Notes under the pieces: model-generated
Seen by the model: the letters and a program-made list of their open reading frames with translations, nothing else
The model's database searches: none
What the model was told of the DNA's origin: nothing
Position numbers and translations under genes: made by a program
DNA from: a virus
Direction: 5' to 3' (one strand)
Virus record (IMG/VR): IMGVR_UViG_3300045988_139374
Span: 32,001-96,000 of that record
Length of the DNA stretch: 64,000 bases
Part shown: one piece after another, positions 2,999-62,236 of the stretch
Layout of the letters: each line of letters opens with the position of its first letter
Position numbering within the stretch: the first letter of the stretch is position 1

Positions 2999-4207
2999 TT
3001 ATTCTTTAATAGGTTTTCCATTATCATCTACAAAATAAATTGCATTTATAGGAATTTTTACATTTCCTTTGGAATCCATAATAGGAGTATTTAATGCATC
3101 TTCAATACTCATACCTTTATTAAGTCTATGGCAAGTTGTGTCTTGTGTAAATCCTCTAGCTCTATCCCAATCAGCACAGGTCATGGTAGTTCCATCATAT
3201 GTAATATATCTAATTCCTTGCGTTGCTGGTGTTGTTAATGCTCTATCAATATTCCATCCTTTTTTAATAATTCTATCATATAATAGATCATTACTGATAC
3301 CGGTAATAGATGACCATTCTTGAAGTGTATGAATTTCACCATAAGAGTTAGCTATTCTAATAAATTGATCATTAATTGCTGTATATAATGTTTGATATGC
3401 AGTCCATTGTTTATTTACATATCTATCATAGATAGTGGCATAAGGAATTCCTGTAATAGTTGACCATTCGGAAATCGTATGAGTTTCTCCATTATATTCA
3501 ATATAAATAGTATTTCTTTTATTATTTGCTTGCATTTTAGAATCTGCCCATCTACAATTATTAGGCTCATAATTACCATTTACATTAATTCTATCAATAG
3601 ACAATTCATCTGTATATCCATTAGCCATTGCCCAATTATAGAAATTAATAAATCCATTCTCACCTCTCCATGCATTGCATACTTTAATTCCTCTTCCGCC
3701 ATAATCCATATAATGATCATTATTTTTATTATAGCATCTATCGAGCATGTTTTTATATGTATTATAGATTCTAGTTCCATGCATTCCATGCTTTGTAGCT
3801 GCTTCTACAATAGCGCATCCACAAGATTTAGTATGGCCATTACGAAGACTATGCCCTCTTACGATACACTCATTACCACAAAGGCATTTACATTTCCAGC
3901 ATACATGCTTTTCTCCATTCTTATCAATATAATCATCAGCTCTTTCTATTACCGTAAGTTTACCAAAAGTTTGTCCGGTTAAATCTTTTAATTTATTTGC
4001 AGATTGACACCCACAATGCCAAGCATGACCATTTCTTAATAAATTACCAGGAACGCTTCTCAATCCACCACATTGGCATCGACAAATCCAGCGAGCGACG
4101 TGTTTTCCAGTCTTAGGTTGAATATAATCATTTTCATCTCTCCTTAATACTGTTAACATACCATATTGCTTCCCGGTTAAATCAGTTGTAGTGTAATTAG
4201 TTCGCAT
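2999..4207 (-). CDS. Homing-endonuclease-like protein (Cys-cluster + YGGRGI/DRIN..NCRW family), free-standing
   Basis: Two N-terminal modules of the form G.xFG.LTV..W.C.C.CG...L..G.T.SCGC. Core is MLDRCYN..YGGRGIKVC..W..F.NF..W, followed by SIDRINVNGNYEPNNCRWA. Three C-terminal GE(T/I)HT(I/L).EW..ITGI repeats. RBS aaggagg. Confidence 0.6.
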   Translation of the reverse strand: MRTNYTTTDLTGKQYGMLTVLRRDENDYIQPKTGKHVARWICRCQCGGLRSVPGNLLRNGHAWHCGCQSANKLKDLTGQTFGKLTVIERADDYIDKNGEKHVCWKCKCLCGNECIVRGHSLRNGHTKSCGCAIVEAATKHGMHGTRIYNTYKNMLDRCYNKNNDHYMDYGGRGIKVCNAWRGENGFINFYNWAMANGYTDELSIDRINVNGNYEPNNCRWADSKMQANNKRNTIYIEYNGETHTISEWSTITGIPYATIYDRYVNKQWTAYQTLYTAINDQFIRIANSYGEIHTLQEWSSITGISNDLLYDRIIKKGWNIDRALTTPATQGIRYITYDGTTMTCADWDRARGFTQDTTCHRLNKGMSIEDALNTPIMDSKGNVKIPINAIYFVDDNGKPIKE

Positions 4208-6816: not shown

Positions 6817-6835
6817 TCAAAATTTAAGATTGAAT

Positions 6836-6847
6836 AGATATTATAAT
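6836..6847 (+). promoter_or_regulatory. Early promoter-like motif AGATATTATAAT
   Basis: Exact 12-mer recurring in intergenic regions. Followed at 6851-6877 by the hairpin gagagtaagag/ctcttactctc. Confidence 0.55.
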
Positions 6848-6905
6848 AATGAGAGTAAGAGAAAAACTCTTACTCTCAATTTTAATAAAAGGAGATAAAA
6901 AGAAA

Positions 6906-8167: not shown

Positions 8168-10307
8168 ATGGCTGAAATTAAAAATGTTGTAAAGAGGAAT
8201 GGTCAAATCGTCAAGTTTGATCAGACAAAGATCCTAAATGCCATTACAAAAGCAAATAACTCCGTTCCTGAATCAGAAAGACTGTCTGCTGATAAGATTT
8301 CTGAAATTACTAGCACTGTTGTAAATGAATGTGCTAAGAGCACTGAAAATATTGGCGTAGAAGATATCCAGGATATGGTTGAGACCGGTATCATGGAAGC
8401 TGGCGCATTTGCTGTAGCTAAGCATTATATTACATATAGATTTCAGCACAGCCAGATTCGTCAAAAAAATACTACTGATGATAAAATTCTTTCGTTGGTT
8501 GGTCTGAATAATAAAGAGGCCAAGAGCGAGAATTCTAATAAAAATCCTGTCATTAATTCTACTCAGAGAGATTATATGGCAGGTGAAGTTTCTAGAGATC
8601 TTACTCATAGATATTTACTTCCTCAGATTGTTCTTGATGCATGGAATGAAGGTGCTATTCACTTCCATGACAGTGACTATTATAGCCAACATATGCATAA
8701 CTGCGATTTAATAAATCTCGATGATATGTTAAAAAATGGCACTGTTATCACAGGAACTCTTATTGAACCTCCTCATAGTTTCTCCACAGCATGTAACATT
8801 GCTACTCAGATTATTGCTCAAGTAGCATCTAATCAATACGGTGGACAAAGTATTTCTTTGACTCATCTTGCTCCTTTTGTTGACATTAATAGAAAGAAAA
8901 TTCGTAAAGAAGTTATTGCTGAGCATGAAGAAATTGGAGTTTCTATTTCTGATGATGAAGTTAATAGAATTACTGAGATGCGTCTGAAAAAAGAAGTTCA
9001 ACGTGGTGTTCAGACTATTCAGTATCAGGTTGTCACTCTTCTTACAACCAATGGTCAAGCTCCTTTCATTACTGTTTTCATGTATCTGAATGAAGCTAGA
9101 AATGAGCAAGAGAAAAAAGATCTTGCAATGATCATTGAAGAGACTCTGAAGCAGCGTTATCAAGGTGTTAAGAATGAATGTGGCGTTTGGGTTACTCCTG
9201 CATTTCCTAAACTGGTTTATGTTCTAGAAGAAAATAATATTACAGAGGATTCTCCTTACTGGTATCTAACTGAGCTTGCTGCTAAGTGTACAGCTAAGAG
9301 AATGGTTCCTGATTATCTGTCCGAAAAGAAGATGCTCGAACTAAAAGGTGATGTATTTACTCCTATGGGATGCAGATCTTTCCTTACTCCTGATAGATTT
9401 AGCAATAAACTTGGCAATATTGCAAATGCTGGTAATTATGAACCTGGTAAGCATAAATACTATGGAAGATTTAATCAGGGTGTTGTAACTATCAATCTTC
9501 CTTATATTGCAATGCTATCTCATAGAGATATGAATAAATTCTGGGAAATTTTTGATAAGTATTTGGATATCTGTCATACTGGACTTCGTTGTCGCCATGA
9601 AAGACTTCTTGGGACACCTTCTGATGTAGCTCCTATCCTTTGGCAGTATGGAGCACTAGCACGTCTTAAGAAAGGTGAAACTATTGATAAACTTCTTTAT
9701 GATGGATACTCTACTCTTTCTCTTGGATATGCAGGCCTTTACGAATGTACTGTTTATATGACTGGTAAATCTCATACAGATCCTGAAGGCGAACCTTTTG
9801 CTATTCAGGTTATGCAGCATATGAATGATAAGACTGCTGAGTGGAAAGCTGCTGAGAATATTGATTACTCGCTTTACGGAACTCCTATGGAGAGTACCAC
9901 ACAAACATTTGCAAAAGCTCTTAAGAAGTTCGAAATTGTACCTAATGTGAATGATCATAATTATATAACAAATTCTTACCATTGTTGTGTACGGGAGCAT
10001 ATGGATATCTTCAAAAAGCTTCATTTCGAATCTAAGTTTCAGGAGATGTCCCCAGGCGGAGCAATCAGCTATGGAGAGGTCCCAGACATGAAAGACAATA
10101 TTGATGCTGTACTTAAAGTATTGCAATATATTTATGATACTATCATTTATGCAGAGCTTAATACTAAGAGTGATTATTGCCAGTGTTGTGGATATGATGG
10201 AGAAATTGAAATTGTAAAGGATGATAAGGGAGAACTTATTTGGAAATGCCCTAATTGTGGTAACACTGATCAGAATAAGATGAATGTCGCAAGACGTACT
10301 TGTGGGT
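8168..10307 (+). CDS. nrdD: Anaerobic ribonucleoside-triphosphate reductase, exon 1
   Basis: N-terminal ATP-cone-like VVKRNGQIVKFD. C-terminal Zn ribbon CQCCG...CPNCG. The ORF runs into ...RRTCG and then stops inside the glycyl-radical motif. Confidence 0.9.
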
Positions 10308-10634
10308 TAAGATGAATAAAATATGGCTCACGTTAAATTGCTTAAATTGCGGGGACAATCCCATAACCTTAGTCGACTACAACGTAATCAGAAATGATAA
10401 GCGTGATAGTGGCATGAGTTTTGAACTCAACAGCTTGAAATATAGTAGAGACCATAAGAACTGACTAAGCTAGGATCAACCGAGTGTGCAAGTCACTCAG
10501 ACGCAGCGAAATCTTCTATAGAAATATAGGTGAGACGTTCAACGACTATAATAGCAATAAGTTTAGTATTTTACTAAATGATAAGGTATAGTCTACTCCC
10601 GTACTTAAATATCGGGAAACCGAGGGTAGAAAGG
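10308..10634 (+). mobile_element. Group I self-splicing intron (ORF-less) in nrdD
   Basis: Canonical core elements: aaattgcgggg (P-like), gttcaacgacta at 10537-10548 (R) and aaggtatagtc at 10583-10593 (S). The 5' exon gtgggt can pair with intron ggctcac, with a U.G at the splice site. Intron ends in G. Splicing restores RRTCG-YIG. Confidence 0.85.
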
Positions 10635-14501: not shown

Positions 14502-14553
14502 TATGATTAGAGATTGATATTATTTCTAATTTATTATTAAAGGAGTGAAATAT

Positions 14554-15054
14554 ATGAGTAGACTAATTGATTTAACTGGACAAAGATTTGGTAGACTCTA
14601 TGTATTGGGTAGAGATGAAAATCATTTTGGCCATCCTTATAGAAGAGAGGCATTCTGGTGGTGTCAATGCAGTTGCCCAGAACATACAACAATTTCTGTT
14701 TGCGGTACTGCTCTTAGATCTGGTCATACTACATCTTGCGGATGCTACCAAAGAGAAAATAATCATAGACTAGTTACTCATAAAAGAGTATATAAGAAAG
14801 GACTTAGTAAAGAATATCCTGAGCTTCTTAAATATTGGGAAAGGTTGATGAAATTTAAGAAAGATTTACTCTGTGATAGATGGAAAGATGAAGAAAATGG
14901 TGTATATAATTTCATAGATGATATGAAAAATACTCATTTTAAGAGAGCAAGAATTCACAGAAAAGATCCACTTCTACCTTATAGTAAGGAAAATTGTTTC
15001 TGGGATTCAAGAAATTATATTGTAGATCTTCCATTAAAAAATAAGGAGTTGTAA
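14554..15054 (+). CDS. Short paralog of the homing-endonuclease-like family
   Basis: FGRLYVLGR..WWCQCSCPE..SCGC module, then LCDRW..NF.DDM..RKDPLLPYSKENCFW. ATG at 14554 follows aaaggag. Confidence 0.5.
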   Translation: MSRLIDLTGQRFGRLYVLGRDENHFGHPYRREAFWWCQCSCPEHTTISVCGTALRSGHTTSCGCYQRENNHRLVTHKRVYKKGLSKEYPELLKYWERLMKFKKDLLCDRWKDEENGVYNFIDDMKNTHFKRARIHRKDPLLPYSKENCFWDSRNYIVDLPLKNKEL

Positions 15055-15057
15055 AAT

Positions 15058-15507
15058 GTGTCTATTGGTTCTGTAATTCAACCTGGAGATAAGTATAATC
15101 ATCTAACAGTACTTGAGAGAGTAGAAGATAGGAAATTTCCTAATGGAGAAAAGAAACCAACTTTTCTCTGTGAGTGTGACTGTCCTGAAAGAAATAGAAT
15201 AGTAGTCATTGGAGAATATCTTAGAAATGGACATACCAAATCTTGTGGTTGTCTATTGAAAGAAGTTCAAAGTCATGTTGGAGATATGACTAGAACTCAT
15301 GGATTATCTAAAACTAAAGAGGCAATAGTTTATTATCATCTTACAAGTAGGCATCCAGATGAACTATGTGAAAGATGGGCAAAAGATAATCCTAATGGAA
15401 TGGTAAATTTCTATAATGATATGCACATCTCTTATAAACCCGGAAGTAGGCTCGCTAAGAAATATCCTACTGAAAATTATGGCCCCAAGAACTGTTATTG
15501 GCTATAA
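15058..15507 (+). CDS. Short paralog of the homing-endonuclease-like family (GTG start)
   Basis: LTVLERV..FLCECDCPE..SCGC module, then LCERW..NFYNDM..YPTENYGPKNCYW. GTG lies 9 nt after aaggag. Confidence 0.5.
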   Translation: MSIGSVIQPGDKYNHLTVLERVEDRKFPNGEKKPTFLCECDCPERNRIVVIGEYLRNGHTKSCGCLLKEVQSHVGDMTRTHGLSKTKEAIVYYHLTSRHPDELCERWAKDNPNGMVNFYNDMHISYKPGSRLAKKYPTENYGPKNCYWL

Positions 15508-15530
15508 ATTTTATAAAAGGAGATAAACAA

Positions 15531-17771
15531 ATGGCAAGTAACTTTGTAGATCAGGTTAGAGAGGCAGCCAGCTATTTAAGTTCGCCAGAACAGATGCTAG
15601 GAAAAGGTCTAAATATTCCTAATAATGCTACTAATAGTGGTGGACGAAAGATTATGGGTAACACCCATCAGTCTCATTCTCTAGTTCTTACTCGTGGAGA
15701 GATTCCATATGTAGCAACTGGCTATGAAAATAGATTTGGTGAAAGATCTTCTTCTATCATTCAGATGGATGATGATTATGAAGTAATCGCTAAGATTTCT
15801 AAATTTTCATATGCTCCTAACCATCACTATTATCTCATTCTCAGAAGTCTTTCTAAGAATGAATTAACTGTAGTAGAACGTATTTCCTATAAATATGTAA
15901 CAGAAGTTTATGGCTATCTTCATAATAATGCCATTATGGATAATTATAGTAACCCTGGTACTATTATTCATAAAGGCGATATTATTAGAAGATCCACTGG
16001 TTTTGATCAGTATGGCAATAAGACTAGTGGACGTAATATCAATGTTGCATATATGGCACTAGATAATAATATGGAAGACTCTGTTGTTATTTCTAGTAGA
16101 TGCAGTGATCTTCTGTCTGCTCCTTTACTTCGTACTGTAAAGATCATTATTAATGAAAATGATATTCCTCTGAATATCTATGGCAATGATGATATGTATA
16201 AGGTATATCCTGATATTGGTGAAGATGTCAAAGATGGCATCCTTATGGCATATAGAAGAGATAAAAAGGAAGAAGCAATCTATACTCAGTCTGTTAAGAG
16301 ATTGCAAGAGATTATGATGTCTGATGATAAGATTACCATTAAAGGTAAGGTCATTGATATTAATATCTATTGTAATAATCCTGAGTATATTAAGACCAAT
16401 GCATATAATCAGCAGTTCCTTGCATATTATGAAGATAGGCAAAGAATGAATCAGGAGATTGTAAATGTAGTTGGTACATTTGCAACTCAAGGATATAGTC
16501 TCAGCTATGACTTGAATAAAATGTTCTATACTGCTAAAGCTGAACTTGAAGGTAAAAAGTTTATTGATAAAAAGCAATTTAGCAATATTACTATTGAATT
16601 TGTAGTAATGGAAAATCGTAAGCTTGGTGTTGGAGATAAAGTTTCTGATAGATATGGCGGAAAGGGTGTTGTTTCTAAGATCGTTGATACTGAATTAATG
16701 CCTAAAATGTATAATGGCCAGCCTATTGATATGATCAAGAATTCTTCTACGATGTATAACCGAGAGAATGCTGGTCAGATCTTTGAGCATGAGATCAATT
16801 ATATTTCTATGAATATCTTAGACAGAATTAGAGAAGGCAATATGAATCTTCAAGATGCATTTGATGACATTTTGAAATTCTTGAGTCTTCAGTCTCCGCA
16901 ACAGTGTCAAGATATGAGCACCTATATCAATTCTTTGGATTATAGACAGCAGAATGCTTTTCTTGAGAGCATTCTGAACAAGACTTGTATCAATGTATCG
17001 AATAATCCCATTTCTGAAACTATGAATATCGATAAATTGATTACTCTCTATAAAGCTTTTCCTTGGATTGATGAAAAGAGAATCTTGGTTCCTATTGTAG
17101 ATTCTCGTGGCAATTATAGATTCATTCCTACCAGAAGACCTATGATTGCTGCTCCTCAGTATGTCATTCGTCTGAAGCAGTTTGCTGAAGAGAAATTCTC
17201 TGCTGCTAGTTTGTCTTCTACTAACCTTAAAAATGAGAATGCAAAGAGTAAAGCTTCTAAGAATTATAGAGAGCCTAACTCTAATACTCCTATTAAACTG
17301 GGTCAGATGGAATCCGGTGACCTGGATCATATGGGAACAGAATATGTTGTTATCAACCTTTTGCTGCATTCTCTGTCTCCTCATGCAAGACGTTTAGTTG
17401 AGCAGATTGCTATTAATGATCCTTACAATGTCAATGTTCAAATTGATACCACATCTAAGAATAGATCTGCAGAAATCCTTAATGCAAGATTGAAGATTAT
17501 GGGATATAAGATTACTTTCTCTAAGAAAAGAAAGATTAAGAGATATCCTATGATGCAAAATGCAGTAGAATTCCTTGGTAATCCTAATGGAATGACTCCT
17601 GCTATTGAATTCATGGATGAAGGATATGATTTTGATCATTGGTATAAGACTGTAGACGAAATTAAGAAGATCAGTAGTATGCTAGGATTTACTATTGATG
17701 CTGTATCTTTCTCTGATGATATAGAAGATGTGCAACCTGTTTATCCTAAAGATGATATTACTGAAGAATAA
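15531..17771 (+). CDS. Multisubunit RNA polymerase beta subunit, C-terminal half
   Basis: GGRKIMGNTHQSHS (compare ANRALMGANMQRQA), GDKVSDRYGGKGVVSKI (compare GDKxAGRHGNKGVVS) and GQMESGDLDHMG. ATG at 15531 follows aaaaggag. Confidence 0.8.
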   Translation: MASNFVDQVREAASYLSSPEQMLGKGLNIPNNATNSGGRKIMGNTHQSHSLVLTRGEIPYVATGYENRFGERSSSIIQMDDDYEVIAKISKFSYAPNHHYYLILRSLSKNELTVVERISYKYVTEVYGYLHNNAIMDNYSNPGTIIHKGDIIRRSTGFDQYGNKTSGRNINVAYMALDNNMEDSVVISSRCSDLLSAPLLRTVKIIINENDIPLNIYGNDDMYKVYPDIGEDVKDGILMAYRRDKKEEAIYTQSVKRLQEIMMSDDKITIKGKVIDINIYCNNPEYIKTNAYNQQFLAYYEDRQRMNQEIVNVVGTFATQGYSLSYDLNKMFYTAKAELEGKKFIDKKQFSNITIEFVVMENRKLGVGDKVSDRYGGKGVVSKIVDTELMPKMYNGQPIDMIKNSSTMYNRENAGQIFEHEINYISMNILDRIREGNMNLQDAFDDILKFLSLQSPQQCQDMSTYINSLDYRQQNAFLESILNKTCINVSNNPISETMNIDKLITLYKAFPWIDEKRILVPIVDSRGNYRFIPTRRPMIAAPQYVIRLKQFAEEKFSAASLSSTNLKNENAKSKASKNYREPNSNTPIKLGQMESGDLDHMGTEYVVINLLLHSLSPHARRLVEQIAINDPYNVNVQIDTTSKNRSAEILNARLKIMGYKITFSKKRKIKRYPMMQNAVEFLGNPNGMTPAIEFMDEGYDFDHWYKTVDEIKKISSMLGFTIDAVSFSDDIEDVQPVYPKDDITEE

Positions 17772-17805: not shown

Positions 17806-17831
17806 TTTTATTTTTAAAAATGAAATTATTA

Positions 17832-26468: not shown

Positions 26469-26526
26469 ATTGAATAGATAGAGATACTATCTATAAATAT
26501 TTGTCTAAAAAGAAAGGAAATTTATT

Positions 26527-31765: not shown

Positions 31766-32791
31766 TTAGAAATTATTAAATTCTCCGTTATTAATAACAA
31801 CGACTTTCTTAATAGAATTCAAGTTAGTATTTTTAGCAAGATGAGTACGAGGATCAATAGTATAATCCTCAATAACTAGATTAGAAGTAATAGGCATATT
31901 GGGAATTACTTCTCCAGTTCTAGTATTCATCCACTGGAAATACTTAGCTCCAGTTGCTTGGTCGTAAACGATGACTTCTTCAATATCAGGATTATTATCA
32001 TTAAGCATTAGATTTTGCTCAGGAGTTAGATGACTCATAAAGTTATTCATTCCTGCATCAACTCCAGCTTGAATCTGAGGAGGATAATCCTGTCTAATAA
32101 CACCAGTACCACCAGTTAGATTAATAGTATTAGGTAACGTATAAGAAGGAGCACCAACAGGAGCAGAAATAAATGCAGAATATGCATCCATAATTGCCTT
32201 ATTATCATCAGTTTGATCAAGTGCTTTCATATCCTTATAACGACGATACTCGTTATCAATGATAGCCTTAGTAGTAGCATTACGTTCTTTAATAGCTGCA
32301 AGTTTTGTGGAAAGCGCAGAGTTCATAGCAGCACGAGTTTCATTAATATAGTGATACTTGCCCTTCATAGATCTCTGAGATTTCATATAAGCAATATCTT
32401 GAGCACAGTCCATAATAATACCATCTGCTTGAGCAATAATAGTATTGGTCATAGCATTTGTATCGCTATATTCATCAGCATATACTGTATTTTCTACTGT
32501 CTCTCTAGGAGATACTTTATTATCTTCTTGAGCAGAATCATCTGTATTCTTTTTCTTTCTAGCTTTCTTAGGTTTTGTAGAGATAATATCAGCAGTCATG
32601 GTATTTCCATCTACAGAAATAGGTACAGAAACATTGGTTCCAATTAGACTAGAAAAATTGGGCATTGTCTGATTGCTAGTTTGTGTAACAGTTCCTAGAC
32701 TAATGGCTTGGACATCATTGGGCTTTCCATCGGTAGTATAGCTTTGATGCTCATCTACCATGGTAGGTACTTTAGGGAATTCGATTGCCAT
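31766..32791 (-). CDS. Hypothetical protein (341 aa)
   Basis: ORF with RBS aaaggag. Lys-rich patch KPKKARKKK. Confidence 0.55.
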   Translation of the reverse strand: MAIEFPKVPTMVDEHQSYTTDGKPNDVQAISLGTVTQTSNQTMPNFSSLIGTNVSVPISVDGNTMTADIISTKPKKARKKKNTDDSAQEDNKVSPRETVENTVYADEYSDTNAMTNTIIAQADGIIMDCAQDIAYMKSQRSMKGKYHYINETRAAMNSALSTKLAAIKERNATTKAIIDNEYRRYKDMKALDQTDDNKAIMDAYSAFISAPVGAPSYTLPNTINLTGGTGVIRQDYPPQIQAGVDAGMNNFMSHLTPEQNLMLNDNNPDIEEVIVYDQATGAKYFQWMNTRTGEVIPNMPITSNLVIEDYTIDPRTHLAKNTNLNSIKKVVVINNGEFNNF

Positions 32792-53573: not shown

Positions 53574-53652
53574 AATGAAATAGAGATACGAAGATACTCT
53601 ATTTCAGTCGTCTAATTCACCATAATGCAAAATGTACTGGAGGTACAAAATC

Positions 53653-55007: not shown

Positions 55008-56230
55008 TGGTAAACTAAGAAATGCCCCTCATTATGGTGACATAGTGTTGAATGCTATTGAACTGCTGGGAAAGGCTAAAGCTCTCTTACCTACAATCAG
55101 GTGTCGAAAGACAGAAACAAGTAGAGAGATGGGTCATGGTGAAATAAAAGCTTATTATATTTCTATCCCTATTATAATAAGTCCTAAAACCTAAAATCAA
55201 TGTCTAATCAGCAACCAACAAACTTATATTAATCTATTTCAATTTTACTAGGAGGGTTAATATGAGTACCAACGGCAAACCTTTAAACGATATTACTGGA
55301 AAGATTTATCACAGTAACAATTGTGGAGATTTTGAAATCTTAGGTGAGATCGAGTATGTAGGAAAAGAGATTCATACAAGTCCATCAAATACAAGATATG
55401 CTTTGAGATTCCTGAATACAGGATATGTAACTGATGCATCACTAGATGCAATTAGACATGGAAGAGTATATGATAGATATACTCCAAATGTTGCTGGGGT
55501 TGGATATATTGGAACAAATATGATTATCAGTGATCCATATCCTTGCCAGTTTTATAAAGCTTGGAACGATATGATGAATAGATGCTATAATAAAGCTGAT
55601 AAAGATTATCCTTTATATGGAGGCATCGGAATCACAGTAGATCCTAGATGGCATAACTTCTCTACATTTATGCTTGATGTTCCATTTCTTCCGCTTTACG
55701 AAAAGAAGTTAATGTATCCTTCTATTTATCAACTTGATAAAGATTTTCTACAAATTCATGTTCCTAAAAATAAAAGAATTTATTCTAGAAATACATGTAT
55801 GTGGTTATCAAAACTTGATAATGTTTTAATGATGTCAAAAGATCGTGATATTAAAGATGGTAATCCATATGTAGGTGTAGTCTATTCTCACAATTGCTGG
55901 AAAACTGTAATAAATGGAGCAGTCTATGGAAAATTTAATGATCCTAAAGCTGCTGCAAATCTTTTCAATTATTTATATCCAAAGCTTAAAGGACCTTTTA
56001 ATGATATCACTATTCTAAATAATGTAGAATATATTCCATTAGAAGAATTGTCGAAATATATTGTTGGTTCAACGACTATCCAAACTGGAGTAGAGCCGCC
56101 TAAAACGGTTCGAAGTAATAGCACACCTCCAATTAATTTTACAGCTACAATTGGAGATGAAGATATAGTCTGAGCTTATGTAACACATAAGATTAACAAG
56201 CGTTAATATATAAAAAATAACGCAGGTACG
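55008..56230 (+). mobile_element. Group I intron in terL carrying a homing-endonuclease-like ORF
   Basis: The 5' part (55065-55213) is clearly homologous to the polB intron (34526-34677). gttcaacgacta at 56067-56078 (R) and agatatagtc at 56161-56170 (S). The ORF sits in a loop closed by aaccaacaa (55213-55221) and ttgttggtt (56061-69). Exact splice sites not resolved. Confidence 0.8.
55262..56173 (+). CDS. Intron-encoded homing-endonuclease-like protein of the YGGRGI family
   Basis: WNDMMNRCYNKADKDYPLYGGIGITVDPRW.NFSTF and YQLDKD...YSRNTCMW match the free-standing paralogs. RBS aggagg. The last codons overlap the ribozyme R and S elements. Confidence 0.7.
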   Translation: MSTNGKPLNDITGKIYHSNNCGDFEILGEIEYVGKEIHTSPSNTRYALRFLNTGYVTDASLDAIRHGRVYDRYTPNVAGVGYIGTNMIISDPYPCQFYKAWNDMMNRCYNKADKDYPLYGGIGITVDPRWHNFSTFMLDVPFLPLYEKKLMYPSIYQLDKDFLQIHVPKNKRIYSRNTCMWLSKLDNVLMMSKDRDIKDGNPYVGVVYSHNCWKTVINGAVYGKFNDPKAAANLFNYLYPKLKGPFNDITILNNVEYIPLEELSKYIVGSTTIQTGVEPPKTVRSNSTPPINFTATIGDEDIV

Positions 56231-58246
56231 ACTAATTTCATAAGGGAACTATGTAGGATCCCAACCGAAGGCGGTGCAGTTGGAGCTGGTAAAAGATTCG
56301 AACTAAATCGTGGTAACTTAGCCATGGCATATATGTTCGTTTATAATATTAACCAATTTGTAGAATTTCCTCGACAGCATGGTAAAACTGTTAGCGCCCT
56401 TTGTTGGTATCTTTGGGTTTTTAATTTCGGTGCAACAAATACTAGAATAATGTTTGCTAATAAGAAGCATGAAGACTCTAAAGCAAACTTGAGAACCATG
56501 AAGAATCTAAGAGCTGCCTTACCAGAATATTTGCGTATGGAAGCTCAGTTAGATAGAGATGGTAAACAAATACGTGCTCCAAATACAGCAGAAACATTAC
56601 AGAATCCTATAAATAGAAACTTGATTACCACTCTACCTGGTGCTAGAACTCCGGCTCTAGCAGAAGGTGCAGGACGTGGTGCTACAGTTGCAATTCAATA
56701 TTATGATGAGTTTGCTTTCTTGCCTTATAATGATATTGTATATACTGCTGCTATGCCTGCATTCTCTAAAGCATCTGAGAACGCTAAGTCTAATGGATCT
56801 CCTTATGGAGTATTGATTACTACTACTCCTGGAGACTTGACTACTAGAGAAGGTCAATTTGCTAATCATGTTAGATTGAATGGTACTGAATGGAATGAAA
56901 GTTTTTATGACCTAAGTTATGATGATCTTAAGAAAGTCATTGATGCTAATACAGATTCTAACTTCATGCATATTAGATATACTTATCAAATGCTTGGTAA
57001 TGGTACTGAGTATTTTGATCGCATGGTTAAGGATCTGCAGAAAGACTGGGTTAAGATTCGTCGTGAGGTTCTACTAGAATGGGCTAAGACTGCTGATAAC
57101 AGTCCTTTTAATAGAGAAGATTTGGATATTATCGGAGCTCAAGTAAAGCAGGAACCTAGAAGTATTTTGAGATTTGGTAAAGCTGGACAATTCGTAATGA
57201 AGATTTGGGATACTATACCTATGAATAGTATGTATCCATTCATTATCGGCGTTGACGTTTCTTCTGGTATACATAAAGACTCGTCTGCTATTACAGTTAT
57301 TGATTCTCAAACTACTAAAGTCATTGCTACATTTAAATGTAACTTTATTACGATGCCAGAATTGGCTGATATGATATATCAGTTTACAACTACTTATGCA
57401 AAGAATGCTATTATAAATATCGAAAACAATGGAGGTTTTGGAAGTTCTGTTCTACAGATGCTTATTAAAACTTCTATTAAAAAGAATCTCTATTATGAAA
57501 TTAAAGATCGTATAGATGAAGAGCAATTTGATGGAATGACAGTCAAGCGTAGACCTAAGAAATGTAAAGTCTATGGCTCTACTTCTGGAAAGAATAAACG
57601 TAATCAGCTTATTGAATTGCTGCATCAAAGAGTTCAGCATCATAGAGATAAATTTAATAGTAAAGATATTTATGATGAACTTTGCACAATGGTTGTTAAG
57701 CCTAATGGTAAAGTAGAGCATGCAGACGATGCACATGATGACTTGGTATTCTCTTATCTTTGGGCTTTGTATGTTTTCTATTATGGAGAAGATCTTGCTA
57801 CAAGATTTCATATTATGAAGACAGAGATCTATACTGATGATCATTATGATGAAACTTCTTATAGTCTAGAAGAAGAATATGGTGAAGAAGGAGAAAAACT
57901 AGATCCTAGTGTATTTGCTGATGATGCAGATGCTACTACTCATATGATAAATGATCAGCTCGATTATTTGAGCAAATCTAAGCGTATGAGTATGGAAGAT
58001 TTCCATCTTGCTCAATTAAATGAAGATGAGAAATCTCTGGAAAGAATCAGAAAAACTACAATAGGAAGAAAAGCTATCTCTGATGCTTATCATATTCCTG
58101 AAGATTATTTGGAGAAGCAAGAAAATAATGGATATACAGATATTAGTGCAGATCTGAATAAAATTTGGTATGGAGATAATTCTAAGAATCCTACTAACCC
58201 AACTTTAGCAGGAAACTTAAGTGATCTATTTAATAGAATAAATTAA
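56231..58246 (+). CDS. terL: Terminase large subunit, exon 2
   Basis: The frame is open from 56207. Walker A-like FPRQHGKT, Walker B YYDEFAF, nuclease motifs IGVDVSSG and AHDDLVFSYLWALYV (compare T4 gp17 YHDDLVMSLVIFGW). Confidence 0.85.
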   Translation, partial: TNFIRELCRIPTEGGAVGAGKRFELNRGNLAMAYMFVYNINQFVEFPRQHGKTVSALCWYLWVFNFGATNTRIMFANKKHEDSKANLRTMKNLRAALPEYLRMEAQLDRDGKQIRAPNTAETLQNPINRNLITTLPGARTPALAEGAGRGATVAIQYYDEFAFLPYNDIVYTAAMPAFSKASENAKSNGSPYGVLITTTPGDLTTREGQFANHVRLNGTEWNESFYDLSYDDLKKVIDANTDSNFMHIRYTYQMLGNGTEYFDRMVKDLQKDWVKIRREVLLEWAKTADNSPFNREDLDIIGAQVKQEPRSILRFGKAGQFVMKIWDTIPMNSMYPFIIGVDVSSGIHKDSSAITVIDSQTTKVIATFKCNFITMPELADMIYQFTTTYAKNAIINIENNGGFGSSVLQMLIKTSIKKNLYYEIKDRIDEEQFDGMTVKRRPKKCKVYGSTSGKNKRNQLIELLHQRVQHHRDKFNSKDIYDELCTMVVKPNGKVEHADDAHDDLVFSYLWALYVFYYGEDLATRFHIMKTEIYTDDHYDETSYSLEEEYGEEGEKLDPSVFADDADATTHMINDQLDYLSKSKRMSMEDFHLAQLNEDEKSLERIRKTTIGRKAISDAYHIPEDYLEKQENNGYTDISADLNKIWYGDNSKNPTNPTLAGNLSDLFNRIN

Positions 58247-58250
58247 ATTT

Positions 58251-58279
58251 TAGAGGTAGAGATTTAATCTCTACCTCTA
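58251..58279 (+). terminator. Rho-independent terminator
   Basis: tagaggtagag/ctctacctcta stem followed by ttttattttt. Confidence 0.7.
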
Positions 58280-58294
58280 TTTTATTTTTCAATT

Positions 58295-58306
58295 AGATAT
58301 AATAAA
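58295..58306 (+). promoter_or_regulatory. Early promoter-like motif (AGATATAATAAA variant)
   Basis: tcaattAGATATAATAAA. Followed by the hairpin atagatag/ctatctat at 58312-58334, nearly identical to the one at 26474. Confidence 0.5.
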
Positions 58307-58361
58307 TATGAATAGATAGGTATACACTATCTATAATCGTCATAATAGAAAGGAATAAAAT

Positions 58362-59504
58362 ATGAAAGAATTATTAATCGAAGGAAAATATGCTACTGCA
58401 AAGGTATTTACAGTAGACAATGAGAAGGATGCAATTGATCAGCATGCTAAAGCACAGATTAAAATGATCTGCGATGATGAAGTATCTAAGGATGCTATCA
58501 TTCGAGTTATGCCTGATGTCCATGCTGGAAAAGTTGGTCCTATTGGTCTTACAATGAAATTAAATCATTGTAGAATCATTCCTAATCTTCTTGGTAATGA
58601 TCTTGGATGTGGAGTTAGCATTTTCAAGATCCATCCTGGGAAGAAACTTACTACATCTGATTTTAATAAATTGGATAAAGTAATTAGAGAGAATATTCCT
58701 GTAAATCTTGCAAGAGGGCCTAGGGATTTATATGGATTTGGTGTGATCAATGCTTTAGGATTTAATACTCCTATACATTCTGATAAGCTGACTCTCTGTT
58801 ATGGAACTCTTGGAAATGGTAATCATTTCATTGAGATCGATATGGATGAGCATGGAGAATATTATCTTACTATTCATACCGGTAGTAGATCTATTGGCCC
58901 TGTTATTAATGATTATTTTAATAGAAAGGGTCAAGAAGAACTCAAATTAAAAGGAATCAATGTTCCTTATGAAATGACATATGTAGAAGATATGTTATAT
59001 GTCCAATATGTAGATGATGTTCGAAAAGCAACTGAATTTGCAAGATTGAATAGAAATAGAATTAGATCTATCATTTGCAGAAAGATGAAATGGGATTCAG
59101 AAATTGAATTTAATGCTCCTCATAATACAATTTCTGAAAAGCATTGCCTCTGTAAAGGAGCAGCATGCGAATTTGAAATGGAGAATAATATCTATATTCC
59201 TATCAATATGAAAGATGGCATTCTCTATGGAGAATTAAATGCAAAGAATAGTGATGAATGGAATTATTCTCTTCCTCATGGTTCCGGCAGATTAATCAAA
59301 AGAAGCGAAGTTAAAAACTCTGTTACTCTTAATATGTTTAAGAAGGAAATGGATGGAGTATTCTCTACATCTGTTTCTAAGGATACACTTGATGAGTCTC
59401 CTTTTGCATATAGAAGAATTGATGAAATCAGAGAAGCTGTATCTGATATTGTCAATGTAAAAGGTGTACTTACTCCTGTGTATAATTTCAAAGGAGGAAA
59501 TTAA
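58362..59504 (+). CDS. rtcB: RtcB-family RNA 3'-phosphate ligase
   Basis: MPDVHAGKVGPIG, GNGNHFIEID, HTGSRSIG, APHNT and LPHGSGR, the ordered RtcB metal- and GMP-binding motifs. Confidence 0.85.
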   Translation: MKELLIEGKYATAKVFTVDNEKDAIDQHAKAQIKMICDDEVSKDAIIRVMPDVHAGKVGPIGLTMKLNHCRIIPNLLGNDLGCGVSIFKIHPGKKLTTSDFNKLDKVIRENIPVNLARGPRDLYGFGVINALGFNTPIHSDKLTLCYGTLGNGNHFIEIDMDEHGEYYLTIHTGSRSIGPVINDYFNRKGQEELKLKGINVPYEMTYVEDMLYVQYVDDVRKATEFARLNRNRIRSIICRKMKWDSEIEFNAPHNTISEKHCLCKGAACEFEMENNIYIPINMKDGILYGELNAKNSDEWNYSLPHGSGRLIKRSEVKNSVTLNMFKKEMDGVFSTSVSKDTLDESPFAYRRIDEIREAVSDIVNVKGVLTPVYNFKGGN

Positions 59505-60112
59505 TGCTAATTCAAATTAGTTCTGGTATCGGAGCTCCTGCAGAATGTGAGCGAGCAGTTTATCTCTTTTCACAGAAGCTCATCTCTGAACTTGATGCTA
59601 CTATTGTCAAGAAGAAAGAATCTGGATTTCATAAAGGATGCTATAAATCTTGCATTCTGAAAACTGATAAGCAAATTAATTCCATTGAATACAATGGCAC
59701 TATTCAGTGGATCTGTAAAAGTCCTTTTAGAATTGGATGGCCTAGAAAGAATTGGTTCATTGATGTGAGCACCATTGATGAAGCTCAATTTATCGATCCT
59801 AATGTTGAAGGGCAAATCTCTTATGAAACTTTTCGTAGTGGAGGAAATGGAGGACAGAATGTAAATAAAGTAGAAACTGCAGTAAGAGGAGTTCATAAGC
59901 CTACTGGGATTTCTGTAGTTTCTATGAAGGAAAGATCTCAGCTTCAGAATAAGAAGGATGTAGAAAATCGCATTTCTGAAAGAATTGTAGATATTAATAA
60001 AAATAGTGAAGCAATTCAAAAGAATTCTGAATGGAAAGAGATCAATAAAATTGTACGTGGCAATCCTATTAGAGTATATAAGGGACCAAATTTTAAAAGA
60101 ATCGATAAATAA
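59504..60112 (+). CDS. prfH: Peptide chain release factor H-like protein
   Basis: GGQ motif (SGGNGGQNVNKVETAVR). GTIQWICKSPFR..RKNWF closely parallels E. coli PrfH as I remember it. TAATG overlap with rtcB, with the SD inside the rtcB 3' end. Confidence 0.8.
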   Translation: MLIQISSGIGAPAECERAVYLFSQKLISELDATIVKKKESGFHKGCYKSCILKTDKQINSIEYNGTIQWICKSPFRIGWPRKNWFIDVSTIDEAQFIDPNVEGQISYETFRSGGNGGQNVNKVETAVRGVHKPTGISVVSMKERSQLQNKKDVENRISERIVDINKNSEAIQKNSEWKEINKIVRGNPIRVYKGPNFKRIDK

Positions 60113-60143: not shown

Positions 60144-60524
60144 ATGGATTACCGTTTTAATTATGATGATGCTATCGTCAATTATCAAGTTGTAGAAATT
60201 AATGGCATCAAGTGTTTATTTACAGAGAGCCGTCTTCATAGATTCCCACTCCCTGGATTCATCAAAATGTATGATCTTAGACATGGAGATAATCCCAGTC
60301 GTCCTAAAACTCTTGAACCTGCTGTTGTAGTAAATTTCTTTGGCACTATTATCACTGATCACACTTTCAATCTTAATGAAAGTAAAGCAACTGGTAATCC
60401 TGTTGATAAATTTATGCGCCTCAACAGAAACAACTTTAAATATGCATATGAAGACGATGTATGCGGCACTGATGCATGCAAATGGATCAGTGATCATAGT
60501 GTTGAAAAAGACTATGATGAATAA
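60144..60524 (+). CDS. Small protein with LPD28-like domain
   Basis: FTESRLHRFPLPGFIKMYDLRHGDNPSRPKTLEPAVVVNFFGTII resembles, from memory, a domain of polyvalent proteins on Firmicute conjugative elements. ATG at 60144 follows aaaggaag. Confidence 0.35.
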   Translation: MDYRFNYDDAIVNYQVVEINGIKCLFTESRLHRFPLPGFIKMYDLRHGDNPSRPKTLEPAVVVNFFGTIITDHTFNLNESKATGNPVDKFMRLNRNNFKYAYEDDVCGTDACKWISDHSVEKDYDE

Positions 60525-60532
60525 ATAAAAAG

Positions 60533-60558
60533 TCCGGGTAGGATCACTCCTACCCGGA
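60533..60558. terminator. Bidirectional terminator between convergent genes
   Basis: tccgggtagg/cctacccgga stem followed by tttattttttttt. Confidence 0.65.
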
Positions 60559-60581
60559 TTTATTTTTTTTTGTATTACTAG

Positions 60582-60974
60582 CTAAGATTTTATATAAACC
60601 ATATTAGTGTATCTACAATTCTTAGGATCACCATCTATATTAGAAGCATGATAACCCCTCTCTAAATAACTACTTGCATTAGCAATATAGCTACAAGCTA
60701 CCAAGTCTTTAATATAAAATGGTTCTAATCTCCATTTTCCATCTTTCACGCATGAAAGATTTACATATGGAATATTATTCTTAAAAGCCCAAGAAATATA
60801 AGAATCATTAATTACAGAATATACTTGTCCAGTCTTAGTAATACAATATAAATTAGGAAGAAGACCAGGATATGAGAGAATCTTAGCTTCTTCCATGCTA
60901 TCATGACTACTGAATCCTCTAACAGTAATCATGTTTTGCATCAGATCATAGTATCCATCTTTAGAAGAGTCCAT
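60582..60974 (-). CDS. Small NUMOD4/HNH_3-like protein with degenerate HNH motif
   Basis: YCITKTGQVYSV (NUMOD4-like) and YHASNIDGDPKNCRYTNMVY (HNH_3-like, but the canonical His residues are not all evident). Confidence 0.35.
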   Translation of the reverse strand: MDSSKDGYYDLMQNMITVRGFSSHDSMEEAKILSYPGLLPNLYCITKTGQVYSVINDSYISWAFKNNIPYVNLSCVKDGKWRLEPFYIKDLVACSYIANASSYLERGYHASNIDGDPKNCRYTNMVYIKS

Positions 60975-61000: not shown

Positions 61001-62236
61001 TTACTTATATCCAAAAGCTTTCATTGTATCAATTTCTGTAAGCTGAACGGTAGAATCATGGAATGCTTTCATAGACTTATTCTTATAAATAGAGAAAACT
61101 TGCATAAGAGTAAGTCCAACATTTTTAATTCCAAGTTTCTTATAGAAATTACCAGCACATGCATTACAGGGTTTTTCATGGGGGCAAAGATAAGCCATTC
61201 TCATCTTAACTTTCTTACCAATAAATTGATCTCGGTTTTGAGAATTAAGCTCAATTAGCTTACCATTGCTTCCTATAATATTGTTATACATATACTGGTT
61301 TACATTTTTAGGGGTTAGCTCTATTGTAATATGTCTATCAGTATGGCAATCAGTACCATCTTCATCCAAAATCAAGTCTTGATATGCCATAGTAGTAAGG
61401 TTCTCTAGATAGCCGCCACCTTCAGTTTTCTTACCACGAGAATATGCACCTTCTATGCCAGAATTAGAATATAGAGAATATTCTTCTCTCTTAATTCCTT
61501 CCATATAGTTAGAAGTAGCAATACGAAATTCTTGTTTAGAATCAGGGTTGGGATCTCTAGTAGCGCCTTTCCAGATAAACATATTTTTGAAATTATTATT
61601 AATATTAGATCTTGCTCCAGAAATAAAAGAATCCATTGCTGGATCATCTTTCAAAAGCTCCTTAGCATAAGCAATGAGTTCATCCTCGATTTGCTTAGCT
61701 ACAACAGTATCTCCAGCTTCAAGCTCCTTTTGATGCTCCTTAATTAGTTTATCCTTCAGTTTATCAATTTGAACACTACATGTCAAAAGATCTTCAGAAT
61801 AATTTGGAGCTAACACAGTAACAAATTGCATTGCAAACTGAGTCTTCATCAAATAATTCTTAAGGGTTTGAACAGAGATTCGATCTTCCATTAAAGCATA
61901 TGAAAGATCTTGGTTCATATCTTCCAACTGGCCACCATTGATAGTTTTATTTACATATCCAAACAATTCAAAAAGATCTTGCTCAATGAACCATTTGTTG
62001 AAAATCCAAATACCTACAGTGGTAGTAAAAGTATTTTTATTTTTGTGGTTTTCTGGACCATAATATCCAGGAGGAACCTTTAGAATATCATATGGATGGC
62101 ATTTACATTTACCATCATATTCACCAAATAGTCCAAAAATAAAAGAAGATGTGATTTTATCCTCTGTAATATTAAGGAGCTCTGCTTTAAGAGTAGGATC
62201 TGTAACTTCTGTAGATACTCTCTTCTTAACGGCCAT
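61001..62236 (-). CDS. Multisubunit RNA polymerase beta-prime subunit, C-terminal part
   Basis: FISGARSNINNNFKNMFIWKGATRDP (compare SGARGSxxQxxQLxGMRGL). GIKREEYSLYSNSGIEGAYSRGKKTEGGGYLENL (compare [30 protein letters not shown]). Confidence 0.75.
   Translation of the reverse strand: MAVKKRVSTEVTDPTLKAELLNITEDKITSSFIFGLFGEYDGKCKCHPYDILKVPPGYYGPENHKNKNTFTTTVGIWIFNKWFIEQDLFELFGYVNKTINGGQLEDMNQDLSYALMEDRISVQTLKNYLMKTQFAMQFVTVLAPNYSEDLLTCSVQIDKLKDKLIKEHQKELEAGDTVVAKQIEDELIAYAKELLKDDPAMDSFISGARSNINNNFKNMFIWKGATRDPNPDSKQEFRIATSNYMEGIKREEYSLYSNSGIEGAYSRGKKTEGGGYLENLTTMAYQDLILDEDGTDCHTDRHITIELTPKNVNQYMYNNIIGSNGKLIELNSQNRDQFIGKKVKMRMAYLCPHEKPCNACAGNFYKKLGIKNVGLTLMQVFSIYKNKSMKAFHDSTVQLTEIDTMKAFGYK

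Follow-up and report, generated by a model that had tools for sequence, protein, structure and literature searches.

We analysed a 64,000-nucleotide stretch of viral DNA (positions 32,001 to 96,000 of IMG/VR record IMGVR_UViG_3300045988_139374), referred to below as the window, that contains a gene pair predicted to encode an RtcB-type RNA ligase and the release-factor homologue PrfH. In the list of open reading frames (ORFs) of the window, rtcB (58362..59504, + strand) encodes a protein of 380 amino acids (aa) and prfH (59504..60112, + strand) a protein of 202 aa that is of the small PrfH type with no C-terminal tail. The two genes overlap by 1 nt in the sequence TAATG, where the final A of the rtcB stop codon TAA (59502-59504) is also the first base of the prfH ATG (59504-59506). 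Read from the sequence, a GGAGG Shine-Dalgarno motif for prfH lies at 59493-59497 (+) inside rtcB, in the codons of its conserved C-terminal K-G-G and 6 nt before the ATG. A preliminary description of this DNA had listed the two ORFs, their overlap and the Shine-Dalgarno motif; we found the ORFs at exactly the coordinates it gave, and the overlap and the motif are present. Start and stop codons of rtcB and prfH also overlap in a related phage (locus L174), in Izemoplasmatales (L013) and in Salmonella (L016).

Downstream of prfH there is a third gene (60144..60524, +) predicted to encode a 126-aa protein with an LPD28 domain (PF18843, 66 bits). Predicted intrinsic terminators lie on both sides of the three genes. 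The first (58251..58289, +) is a hairpin of two perfectly complementary 14-nt arms (58251-58279) with a T-run after it, and closes the upstream unit of the large terminase gene, terL. The second (60530..60571, +) is a bidirectional hairpin with a stem of 14 pairs (7 G-C) followed by T9 and closes the cassette. A repeat search of the cassette returned these two terminators only, the region as a whole has 7 terminator-like sites against 1.2 expected, and an Rfam scan of the window gave no match. Between the first terminator and rtcB is the promoter-like 12-mer TAGATATAATAA (58294..58305, +), which contains TATAAT and has no -35 element. A sigma-70 consensus scan for -35 and -10 elements did not call a site at 58295, and we rejected a sigma-70 promoter there in favor of a phage-specific recurring motif. 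The 12-mer TAGATATWATAA has 7 exact copies in the window versus 0.24 expected, all of them on the + strand and intergenic, and it probably represents a class of phage promoter that lacks a -35 element. What supports the promoter proposed earlier at 58295 is therefore a recurring phage motif that the cassette has in common with replication genes. By this layout, rtcB, prfH and the LPD28 gene are a three-gene accessory transcription unit that is bounded by terminators and has its own promoter-like motif.

The NCBIfam model of PrfH, TIGR03072 (IPR017509), matched the 202-aa protein at 171.1 bits (cut-off 166.65, E=2.1e-50), with residues 1-197 aligned to positions 1-200 of the 200-position model. 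Competing NCBIfam models matched the C-terminal half of the protein and scored far under their cut-offs, at 79.3 bits for prfB (cut-off 370), 67-71 for prfA (400-423) and 30 for ArfB (100). Pfam identified the RF-1/GGQ domain alone (residues 103-194, E=1.6e-21). The top sequence match in the PDB was 9mor_A, which is Capnocytophaga PrfH (117.7 bits, E 4.7e-33, residues 2-199), and the second was 7sa4_8, which is E. coli PrfH (96.8 bits, E 1.2e-26, residues 2-197). These are two PrfH chains solved on damaged 70S ribosomes; chains of RF1 and RF2 rank next at 43-51 bits. An AlphaFold2 model made with 24 homologues (alignment A2; predicted local distance difference test score, pLDDT, of 85.7) had the same two chains as its best fold matches, with template modelling (TM) scores of 0.71-0.72 under both normalisations. 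Against RF1 and RF2 the query-normalised TM score was ~0.5 and the target-normalised score, which refers to the full-length chains, was ~0.35. The PDB alignment and the AlphaFold2 model agree on an N-terminal rRNA-recognition domain followed by a GGQ domain, with no RF domain 1. The GGQ motif (G116-G117-Q118) is invariant in alignments A1 and A2. The preliminary description had assigned this protein to PrfH rather than RF1 or RF2 from three peptide blocks, QISSGIGAPAEC, GTIQWICKSPFRIGWPRKNWF and SGGNGGQNVNKVETAVR, all of which are present, and had proposed profile searches to separate PrfH from other class-I RF-like proteins; we ran these and the protein groups with PrfH, not with ArfB or RF2, an assignment that is borne out by the TIGR03072 score, the PDB matches and the fold. 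The 202-aa protein is a true PrfH.

Two other identities were rejected. ArfB proteins have a GGQ domain with a basic C-terminal tail in ~140 aa, and the ArfB model aligned to residues 103-128 only. RF1 and RF2, which are ~350 aa at full length including domain 1, align to residues 70-195 only. Domain 1 is lacking, the 64-kb window has no tRNA genes, suppressor tRNAs included, and its long ORFs are intact under code 11; on these grounds we rejected a release factor that acts in stop-codon recoding.

The closest PDB match belongs to the PrfH-CT subfamily, which is defined by a conserved basic C-terminal tail and a total length of 225-250 aa (PMC12829566). The phage protein has the same two-domain fold as Capnocytophaga gingivalis PrfH (CgPrfH; PDB 9mor/9mq4; TM 0.71), but the alignment to CgPrfH (231 aa) ends at CgPrfH residue 207 and the basic tail is absent from the phage protein. 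Because it ends where the tail of PrfH-CT begins, its sequence marks it as a small, E. coli-type PrfH, a type that is active on damaged ribosomes only (PMC12829566, PMC9304027), and no activity on intact non-stop ribosomes is expected of it.

The Pfam RtcB model PF01139 matched the 380-aa protein at 140.3 bits (gathering score 27, E=1.4e-40), and the PHROGs family phrog_1075 ('tRNA splicing ligase') matched it at 299 bits. Its catalytic set is complete, with D80, C83, N154, H155, H172, R176, H254, H306, R310 and R314 equivalent to D75, C78, N167, H168, H185, R189, H281, H337, R341 and R345 of E. coli RtcB. We take these residues to have the metal, GTP and histidine-nucleophile roles of their E. 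coli counterparts. The essential RtcB histidine is also given in PMC9304027. With the PF01139 match and the full catalytic set, the claim that all RtcB motifs are present holds, and the protein is an active-looking 3'-phosphate/5'-OH RNA ligase.

The models for RtcB2, the ligase partner of PrfH in E. coli and Salmonella, gave a different result. The window RtcB scored 84.1 bits with TIGR03073 (cut-off 271.8) and 110.9 bits with NF007153 (cut-off 407). As controls for the two models, Salmonella RtcB2 scored 643 and 641 and E. coli RtcB1 scored 144 and 173, the latter being above the window RtcB. PrfH-linked RtcBs from Bacillota, at 110-139 bits, also fall below the cut-offs. Since both RtcB2 models failed and the window RtcB forms part of a separate clade in a neighbor-joining (NJ) tree, we rejected RtcB2 orthology. 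The trees in this work are all NJ trees with no bootstrap support, and the published similarity-network counterpart of RtcB2 is 'SSN cluster 2' of PMC9304027. The preliminary description had likened the phage pair to the bacterial rtcB2-prfH operon. This likeness stands for PrfH and for the operon linkage and fails for RtcB2 orthology.

BLAST scores and the NJ tree indicate that, among the matches listed, PrfH partners with RtcBs of at least three clades in bacteria. One is RtcB2 proper, from Proteobacteria, Enterocloster and two prophage-like contigs; another is a long Bacteroidota type near RtcB1; the third is a short Bacillota/phage type that holds the window RtcB. The bacterial loci behind these clades include Enterocloster hominis (L095), Bacteroidota (L098-L115) and Proteobacteria (L104-L121). 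PrfH-linked members of the short clade come from Izemoplasmatales (L013), Lachnospiraceae (L010, with two small genes between rtcB and prfH) and a Clostridia metagenome-assembled genome. The Izemoplasmatales RtcB is 51% identical to the window RtcB, and its gene has the same order and coupling with prfH as in the phage. The NCBIfam 'RtcB2' and 'release_rtcB' models cover just part of the PrfH-coupled ligases, namely the proteobacterial-type RtcB2. In the E. hominis locus a PrfH of Bacillota type stands with a ligase of RtcB2 type, so that PrfH and RtcB partners have been swapped.

By its predicted gene content, the element is a lytic-type myovirus of ~160 kb with its own multisubunit RNA polymerase. 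The window encodes a large terminase, tail sheath, virion proteins, DNA polymerase, NAD-dependent DNA ligase, an SbcC-like protein and a SleB-type cell-wall hydrolase. The cassette also occurs, at 97-98% protein identity, in a 160,781-bp IMG/VR contig. The window also encodes an anaerobic ribonucleoside-triphosphate reductase, NrdD, with an ATP-cone (8168-10315, +; 585 bits), which points to a strictly anaerobic host. One relative comes from a pig-gut metagenome, and the closest bacterial PrfH and RtcB homologues are from Lachnospiraceae, Clostridia and Izemoplasmatales (41-51% identity). The host is probably an anaerobic Bacillota species. The phage origin of the pair, its translational coupling and its separate transcription unit, all put forward in the preliminary description, are confirmed by the phage gene content, the overlap and Shine-Dalgarno motif, the terminators and the recurring promoter-like motif.

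In related phages the genes surrounding the cassette are 76-87% identical to those of the window, compared with ~62% for RtcB and 63-66% for PrfH. The locus between terL and a minus-strand block of HNH endonuclease and RNA polymerase genes is variable, and relatives have four to six called, unannotated genes between the terminase and rtcB. Two relatives (L174 and L176) have the order rtcB-prfH-LPD28(+YunG-like). Each of the related phages examined has an LPD28(+YunG-like) gene after RtcB or PrfH, at 6621-8006 in L174 (duplicated), 6621-7346 in L176, 6149-6877 in L179 and 7725-9164 in L177. In L179 the LPD28-YunG gene is directly coupled to rtcB, starting on its last base. The window protein is cut down to the 126-aa LPD28 half. 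The LPD28 protein may be a partner of the ligase. A role as a general RtcB/PrfH accessory was rejected, because none of the bacterial or other phage loci that we checked has LPD28.

The ratio of nonsynonymous to synonymous substitution rates (dN/dS) of rtcB and prfH against their closest relatives is 0.05-0.09, and their G+C content at third codon positions is the same as in core phage genes. By these ratios, purifying selection acts on both. The sequence and layout of the two genes show them to be intact, conserved, co-transcribed and translationally coupled. In the NJ tree, RtcBs of this phage family form a monophyletic group whose sister is a bacterial RtcB linked to PrfH, with PrfH-bearing phage lineages branching first and PrfH-less ones forming the crown. 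This unbootstrapped topology tentatively suggests that the pair was captured jointly and prfH was later lost. The likely source is the rtcB-prfH operons of Bacillota (Izemoplasmatales L013, Lachnospiraceae L010/L096, Clostridia L097), which encode RtcBs of the same clade (43-51%) and PrfHs of the same clade (41-51%). These operons differ from the phage cassette in that the bacterial PrfHs have a canonical R-P-H-H-K-R-K-N-W pocket and there is no LPD28 gene.

The pair also recurs in other viruses. A scan of IMG/VR with the PrfH alignment found adjacent rtcB and prfH in the large AT-rich contigs L006 (239 kb), L021 (166 kb), L025 (292 kb) and L029 (178 kb), whereas a single-protein scan with RtcB returned the same phage only. 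Fragments of a phage RNA polymerase beta subunit are encoded by L006, L025 and L029, the last of which also has UvsX and a weak match to a PhuZ-like tubulin. L021 and L006 have a neighboring 566-aa gene in common. By these predicted contents, at least three other large-phage lineages in IMG/VR (L006, L025 and L029) carry the pair. Some higher-GC contigs with the pair (L022, L026, L027 and L031) may be prophage cargo or host flank: L022 and L026 were flagged by base composition only, the pair in L027 is near the contig end and that in L031 follows P2-type tail genes, as judged by eye.

The identity of PrfH, the RtcB catalytic set, the order and coupling of the genes, the selection acting on them and their recurrence support the interpretation that the cassette would be a unit for the rescue and repair of ribosomes with broken rRNA, which the phage would use as a counter-defense against a host RNase. 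We give this interpretation a probability of roughly 60%. It is also supported by the location of the cassette in a variable island between terL and the RNA polymerase/virion block that evolves faster than the core (62-66% versus 76-87% identity). The function of the bacterial RtcB-PrfH pair has been shown experimentally (PMC9304027, PMC9223846, PMC13166195). Over-expressed RtcB2 alone relieves colicin-E3 toxicity and PrfH speeds repair (PMC13166195), which fits PrfH as an optional enhancer. Anti-phage effectors that cleave rRNA have been reported, among them the HEPN effector of a type IX retron and a HEPN-MNT system from Legionella (bioRxiv 10.64898/2026.07.14.738597).

In the mechanism we propose, a nuclease would break the rRNA of the 30S subunit at the decoding centre or close to it. 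The break would have a 2',3'-cyclic or 3'-phosphate end and a 5'-OH end, and the ribosome would stall with its A site empty. PrfH would then occupy the A site, where its N-terminal rRNA-recognition domain would read the broken end and its GGQ loop would hydrolyse the peptidyl-tRNA, after which the subunits could part. RtcB would seal the exposed break with GTP and put the 30S subunit back in service. With such a kit, phage translation would survive when an RNase of a host abortive-infection or toxin-antitoxin system attacks ribosomes. We infer the substrate, the site of the cut and the biological opponent, as we do the counter-defense role itself.

To compare the recognition pocket, we took the roles of PrfH residues from the E. 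coli cryo-EM structure (PMC9304027). The pocket for the 3'-phosphate end of cleaved A1493 comprises the loop of residues 9-12 together with R83, H86, R88 and R189, with H86 acting as ligand of the 3'-phosphate. K89 and N90 contact helix h18 of the 16S rRNA, and R52, S53, R181 and H184 contact C1914 in helix H69 of the 23S rRNA, on which H184 stacks (PMC9304027). The window protein keeps R83 (as R76), R88 (R81), K89 (K82), N90 (N83), S53 (S49), R189 (R185) and the GGQ motif (G116-Q118). Four positions are replaced, H85 by G78, H86 by W79, G87 by P80 and H184 by I180. Position 181 is W in all aligned PrfHs but that of Salmonella, which has R. A W-P-R-K-N-W signature is present in all members of the phage clade (P0001-P0017, 60-97% identical) and in 0 of ~100 bacterial PrfHs, which have H-K or H-G there; position 85 is G or N in the phage clade. 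The replacement of H184 and a one-residue extension of the base-binding loop are likewise common to all phage-clade members and absent from the ~100 bacterial PrfHs. By these alignments, the pocket changes are a fixed, lineage-specific change in the lesion-reading part of PrfH. Two rRNA-contacting histidines are lost, and the exact lesion recognised by the phage PrfH is therefore uncertain. For the PrfH field, this naturally varied pocket (H86W, H184I) is a ready-made specificity experiment.

Several observations count against the interpretation that the cassette repairs rRNA as a counter-defense. The phage clade has swapped the 3'-phosphate binder H86 for Trp and the C1914-stacking H184 for Ile, Thr or Ser, and the loop that clamps the base of A1493 is 1 residue longer than in E. 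coli PrfH. The TIGR03072 cut-off is exceeded by just 4.5 bits. By its model scores and position in the tree, the ligase is not a member of the RtcB2 family; it is not orthologous to the characterised E. coli RtcB2, so that rRNA repair is inferred from the linkage to PrfH and not from orthology. The short RtcB clade also has members without PrfH, one in Bacillus phage Goe3 and one that stands alone in a clostridial locus (L014). Among the related phages, L177 and L179 retain RtcB-LPD28 without PrfH, and L178 also lacks prfH; the ligase therefore works without PrfH. Finally, we know of no defense system that cuts between A1493 and G1494.

The altered pocket could have a more specific meaning. 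The phage PrfH may have been re-tooled for another ribosomal lesion or end chemistry than the colicin-E3 cut and, with a non-RtcB2 ligase and LPD28, may constitute a phage-specific ribosome-repair system that betrays an unknown ribosome-cleaving abortive-infection nuclease in gut Clostridia. We regard this as a speculative extension that is rather unlikely to be correct as a whole.

The main rival to ribosome repair is tRNA repair. An ordinary phage RtcB would seal tRNAs cut by an anticodon nuclease, PrfH, as a later addition, would free ribosomes that cleaved tRNA or another lesion had blocked, and rRNA would not be a substrate. The window RtcB shares a clade with phage RtcBs that stand alone and carry tRNA-ligase annotations (phrog_1075, 299 bits), and is ~35% identical to the RtcBs of SPO1-like Bacillus phages. 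However, the same clade is operonic with PrfH in Bacillota bacteria. The failure of the window RtcB with the RtcB2 models, its retention in relatives that lack PrfH and the lack of tRNA genes in the window with which to replace cleaved tRNAs all favor this reading, and elsewhere PrfH lies beside tRNA-type repair enzymes (Tpt1/KptA in L005; a PNK-like kinase and a CCA-adding enzyme, by eye, in L028). Against tRNA repair, the phage PrfH retains R83, R88, K89, N90 and R189, which bind the broken 16S end and h18, and it has no C-terminal tail of the kind with which CgPrfH-type proteins work on non-stop ribosomes. Nor does E. coli PrfH act on ribosomes that are intact (PMC9304027). We consider tRNA repair possible but improbable.

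A second alternative is that the pair protects the infected cell from interbacterial ribotoxins (colicin-E3-like toxins, contact-dependent inhibition or secretion-system rRNases) rather than from anti-phage defense. Dense gut communities are rich in ribotoxins, and the pair was probably acquired from Bacillota, because the closest bacterial RtcB is PrfH-linked. In bacteria the pair has been shown to serve this protective purpose (PMC9304027, PMC9223846). However, a toxin has little chance of arriving within the brief span of a lytic infection; the variable island around the cassette evolves fast, as is typical of genes in host-phage arms races; and several large lytic-type phages that are unrelated to one another carry the pair. 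These points make the explanation doubtful, and less probable to us than tRNA repair.

Damage could also be self-inflicted, if an RNase of the phage or of a co-infecting element acted in host shut-off or superinfection exclusion and the cassette restored the ribosomes afterwards. The promoter type in common with replication genes would permit timed expression and many window ORFs have no assigned function, but there was no RNase or E3-like toxin among the window proteins scanned (64 kb of ~160 kb) and no precedent exists, making this very unlikely. Least probable and disfavored is that the pair are passengers, host genes captured recently with no role in the phage life cycle: some close relatives lack PrfH, but the dN/dS values, the base composition matching the phage, the conservation of the pair with clade-specific signature residues over 60-97% identity and the promoter and terminators of its own all argue against it.

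The best characterised counterparts of the cassette are the RtcB2-PrfH pairs of E. coli ATCC25922 and Salmonella (Tian et al. 2022, PMC9304027; PMC9223846; PMC13166195). There too rtcB precedes prfH with overlapping stop and start codons, PrfH is ~200 aa with rRNA-recognition and GGQ domains and no tail, and R83/R88/K89/N90/R189, GGQ and the full RtcB catalytic set are present. The phage RtcB, by contrast, is 25% identical to Salmonella RtcB2, lies in another clade and fails TIGR03073 and NF007153, and the phage PrfH is 33% identical to its Salmonella counterpart, with H85G, H86W, G87P, H184I and a one-residue loop insertion. The cassette also differs in being encoded by a lytic-type phage and in having a third co-transcribed gene (LPD28). 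T4 Pnk/Rnl1, which act on PrrC anticodon-nuclease damage, and stand-alone phage RtcBs (PMC7824862) are similar in that phage RNA end-healing and sealing reverses an attack of host RNases on translation. They differ in that they repair tRNA and have no ribosome-release factor, whereas the cassette adds a factor that recognises damaged ribosomes. As a further step, the cassette would be the ribosomal counterpart of T4 Pnk/Rnl1 repair. The GGQ-only 'RF-1 domain' proteins of phages (mycobacteriophage Cali gp203, phrog_3122; ArfB-like) have the GGQ peptidyl-tRNA hydrolase domain in common with phage PrfH, but they are ~110 aa long, lack the rRNA-recognition domain, cover 26% of the query and are not beside RtcB.

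According to Tian et al. 2022 (PMC9304027), PrfH occurs in bacteria only. The preliminary description was not aware of the pair having been characterised in phages, and our searches agree. A phage PrfH is not described in the PrfH structure papers, the release-factor evolution paper, the jumbo-phage review or the full-text literature we searched, with Burroughs & Aravind 2016 outside the scope. PHROGs has no full-length family for phage PrfH and BFVD no full-length structural match. Among 50,697 GenBank phage records, no genuine phage with a full-length PrfH was found in the 3 of 5 full-length matches inspected. These three are all flagged UNVERIFIED in GenBank and, being bacterial DNA, were rejected as phage PrfHs: OR850930.1 (L016) is Salmonella chromosome with rtcB2-prfH-gpt-pepD, OQ572403.1 (64105-72602; L017) has Pseudomonas prfB-lysS and chemotaxis genes, and MT838156.1 (L001) is a Bacteroidales-like contig with mnmE. 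Two further 'Bacteriophage sp.' faecal contigs, MT838602.1 and MT837562.1, have matches over 95% of the PrfH length at 27% identity and may be of phage or bacterial origin. Another 205 mycobacteriophage matches are 110-aa GGQ-only proteins not beside RtcB and were not counted as PrfH.

The pair and its logic are already known from bacteria, and phage RNA repair as counter-defense is classical. What is new is a virus-encoded pair with a non-RtcB2 ligase, a remodelled PrfH pocket and a clade-specific third gene. RtcB-PrfH has been published as a bacterial defense against ribotoxins, and its use by a phage would reverse the direction, making it a viral counter-measure that repairs host ribosomes. 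If so, Bacillota and Bacteroidota would be expected to fight phages by cutting rRNA at the decoding centre or close to it, and the cassette would then point to an undiscovered ribosome-cutting defense and offer a concrete way to trace its nuclease.

PrfHs of the Bacteroidota type also occur in viral contigs that have no RtcB in the flank (L005, 780-2720; L028, 5426-11255). In L005 the gene adjoins that of an RNA 2'-phosphotransferase (Tpt1/KptA), and in L028 it adjoins genes for a PNK-like P-loop kinase, a metallophosphatase and a CCA-adding enzyme, all identified by eye from N-terminal sequences. PrfH may pair with other RNA-repair chemistries too.

Elsewhere in the window, fragments of a multisubunit RNA polymerase beta subunit (phiKZ/AR9-type; Rpb2 domain 6; phrog_2962) are encoded at 15498-17771 (+) and 61001-62236 (-), and there is a weak RecA-like match (23.6 bits, under the Pfam cut-off of 27). 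At least four HNH endonucleases are encoded in the 64 kb, at 3002-4207 (-), 14545-15054 (+), 55262-56173 (+) and 60582-60974 (-). The last of these adjoins the RNA polymerase beta fragment in all relatives, with 56-62% identity. The large terminase is one intact 640-aa ORF in the window (56324-58246) and is split in two in the relatives L176 (530-3515), L177 and L178 (307-2632) and L179 (808-3149). An HNH_3 ORF lies between the terminase pieces of L176, suggesting an intron or a homing-endonuclease insertion.

The exact copies of TAGATATWATAA are at 6835, 14489, 26456, 30299, 30807, 53561 and 58294 (all +), several of them preceded by TTCAAT. Copies with one mismatch at 17831, 21136 and 32810 lie ahead of the NAD-dependent DNA ligase and DNA polymerase genes. 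Most copies have an inverted repeat within a few bases downstream (6850-6878, 26474-26494, 53576-53606 and 58307-58344). The one at 58307..58344 (+) is the predicted 5' leader hairpin of the cassette transcript, and the RNA fold of 58306-58361 has a dG of -10.1 kcal/mol (z -2.8). Another example of a hairpin after the motif is at 6847-6900 (dG -17.8, z -6.2). These hairpins would sit at the very 5' end of the transcript and may be mRNA-stabilising or regulatory elements.

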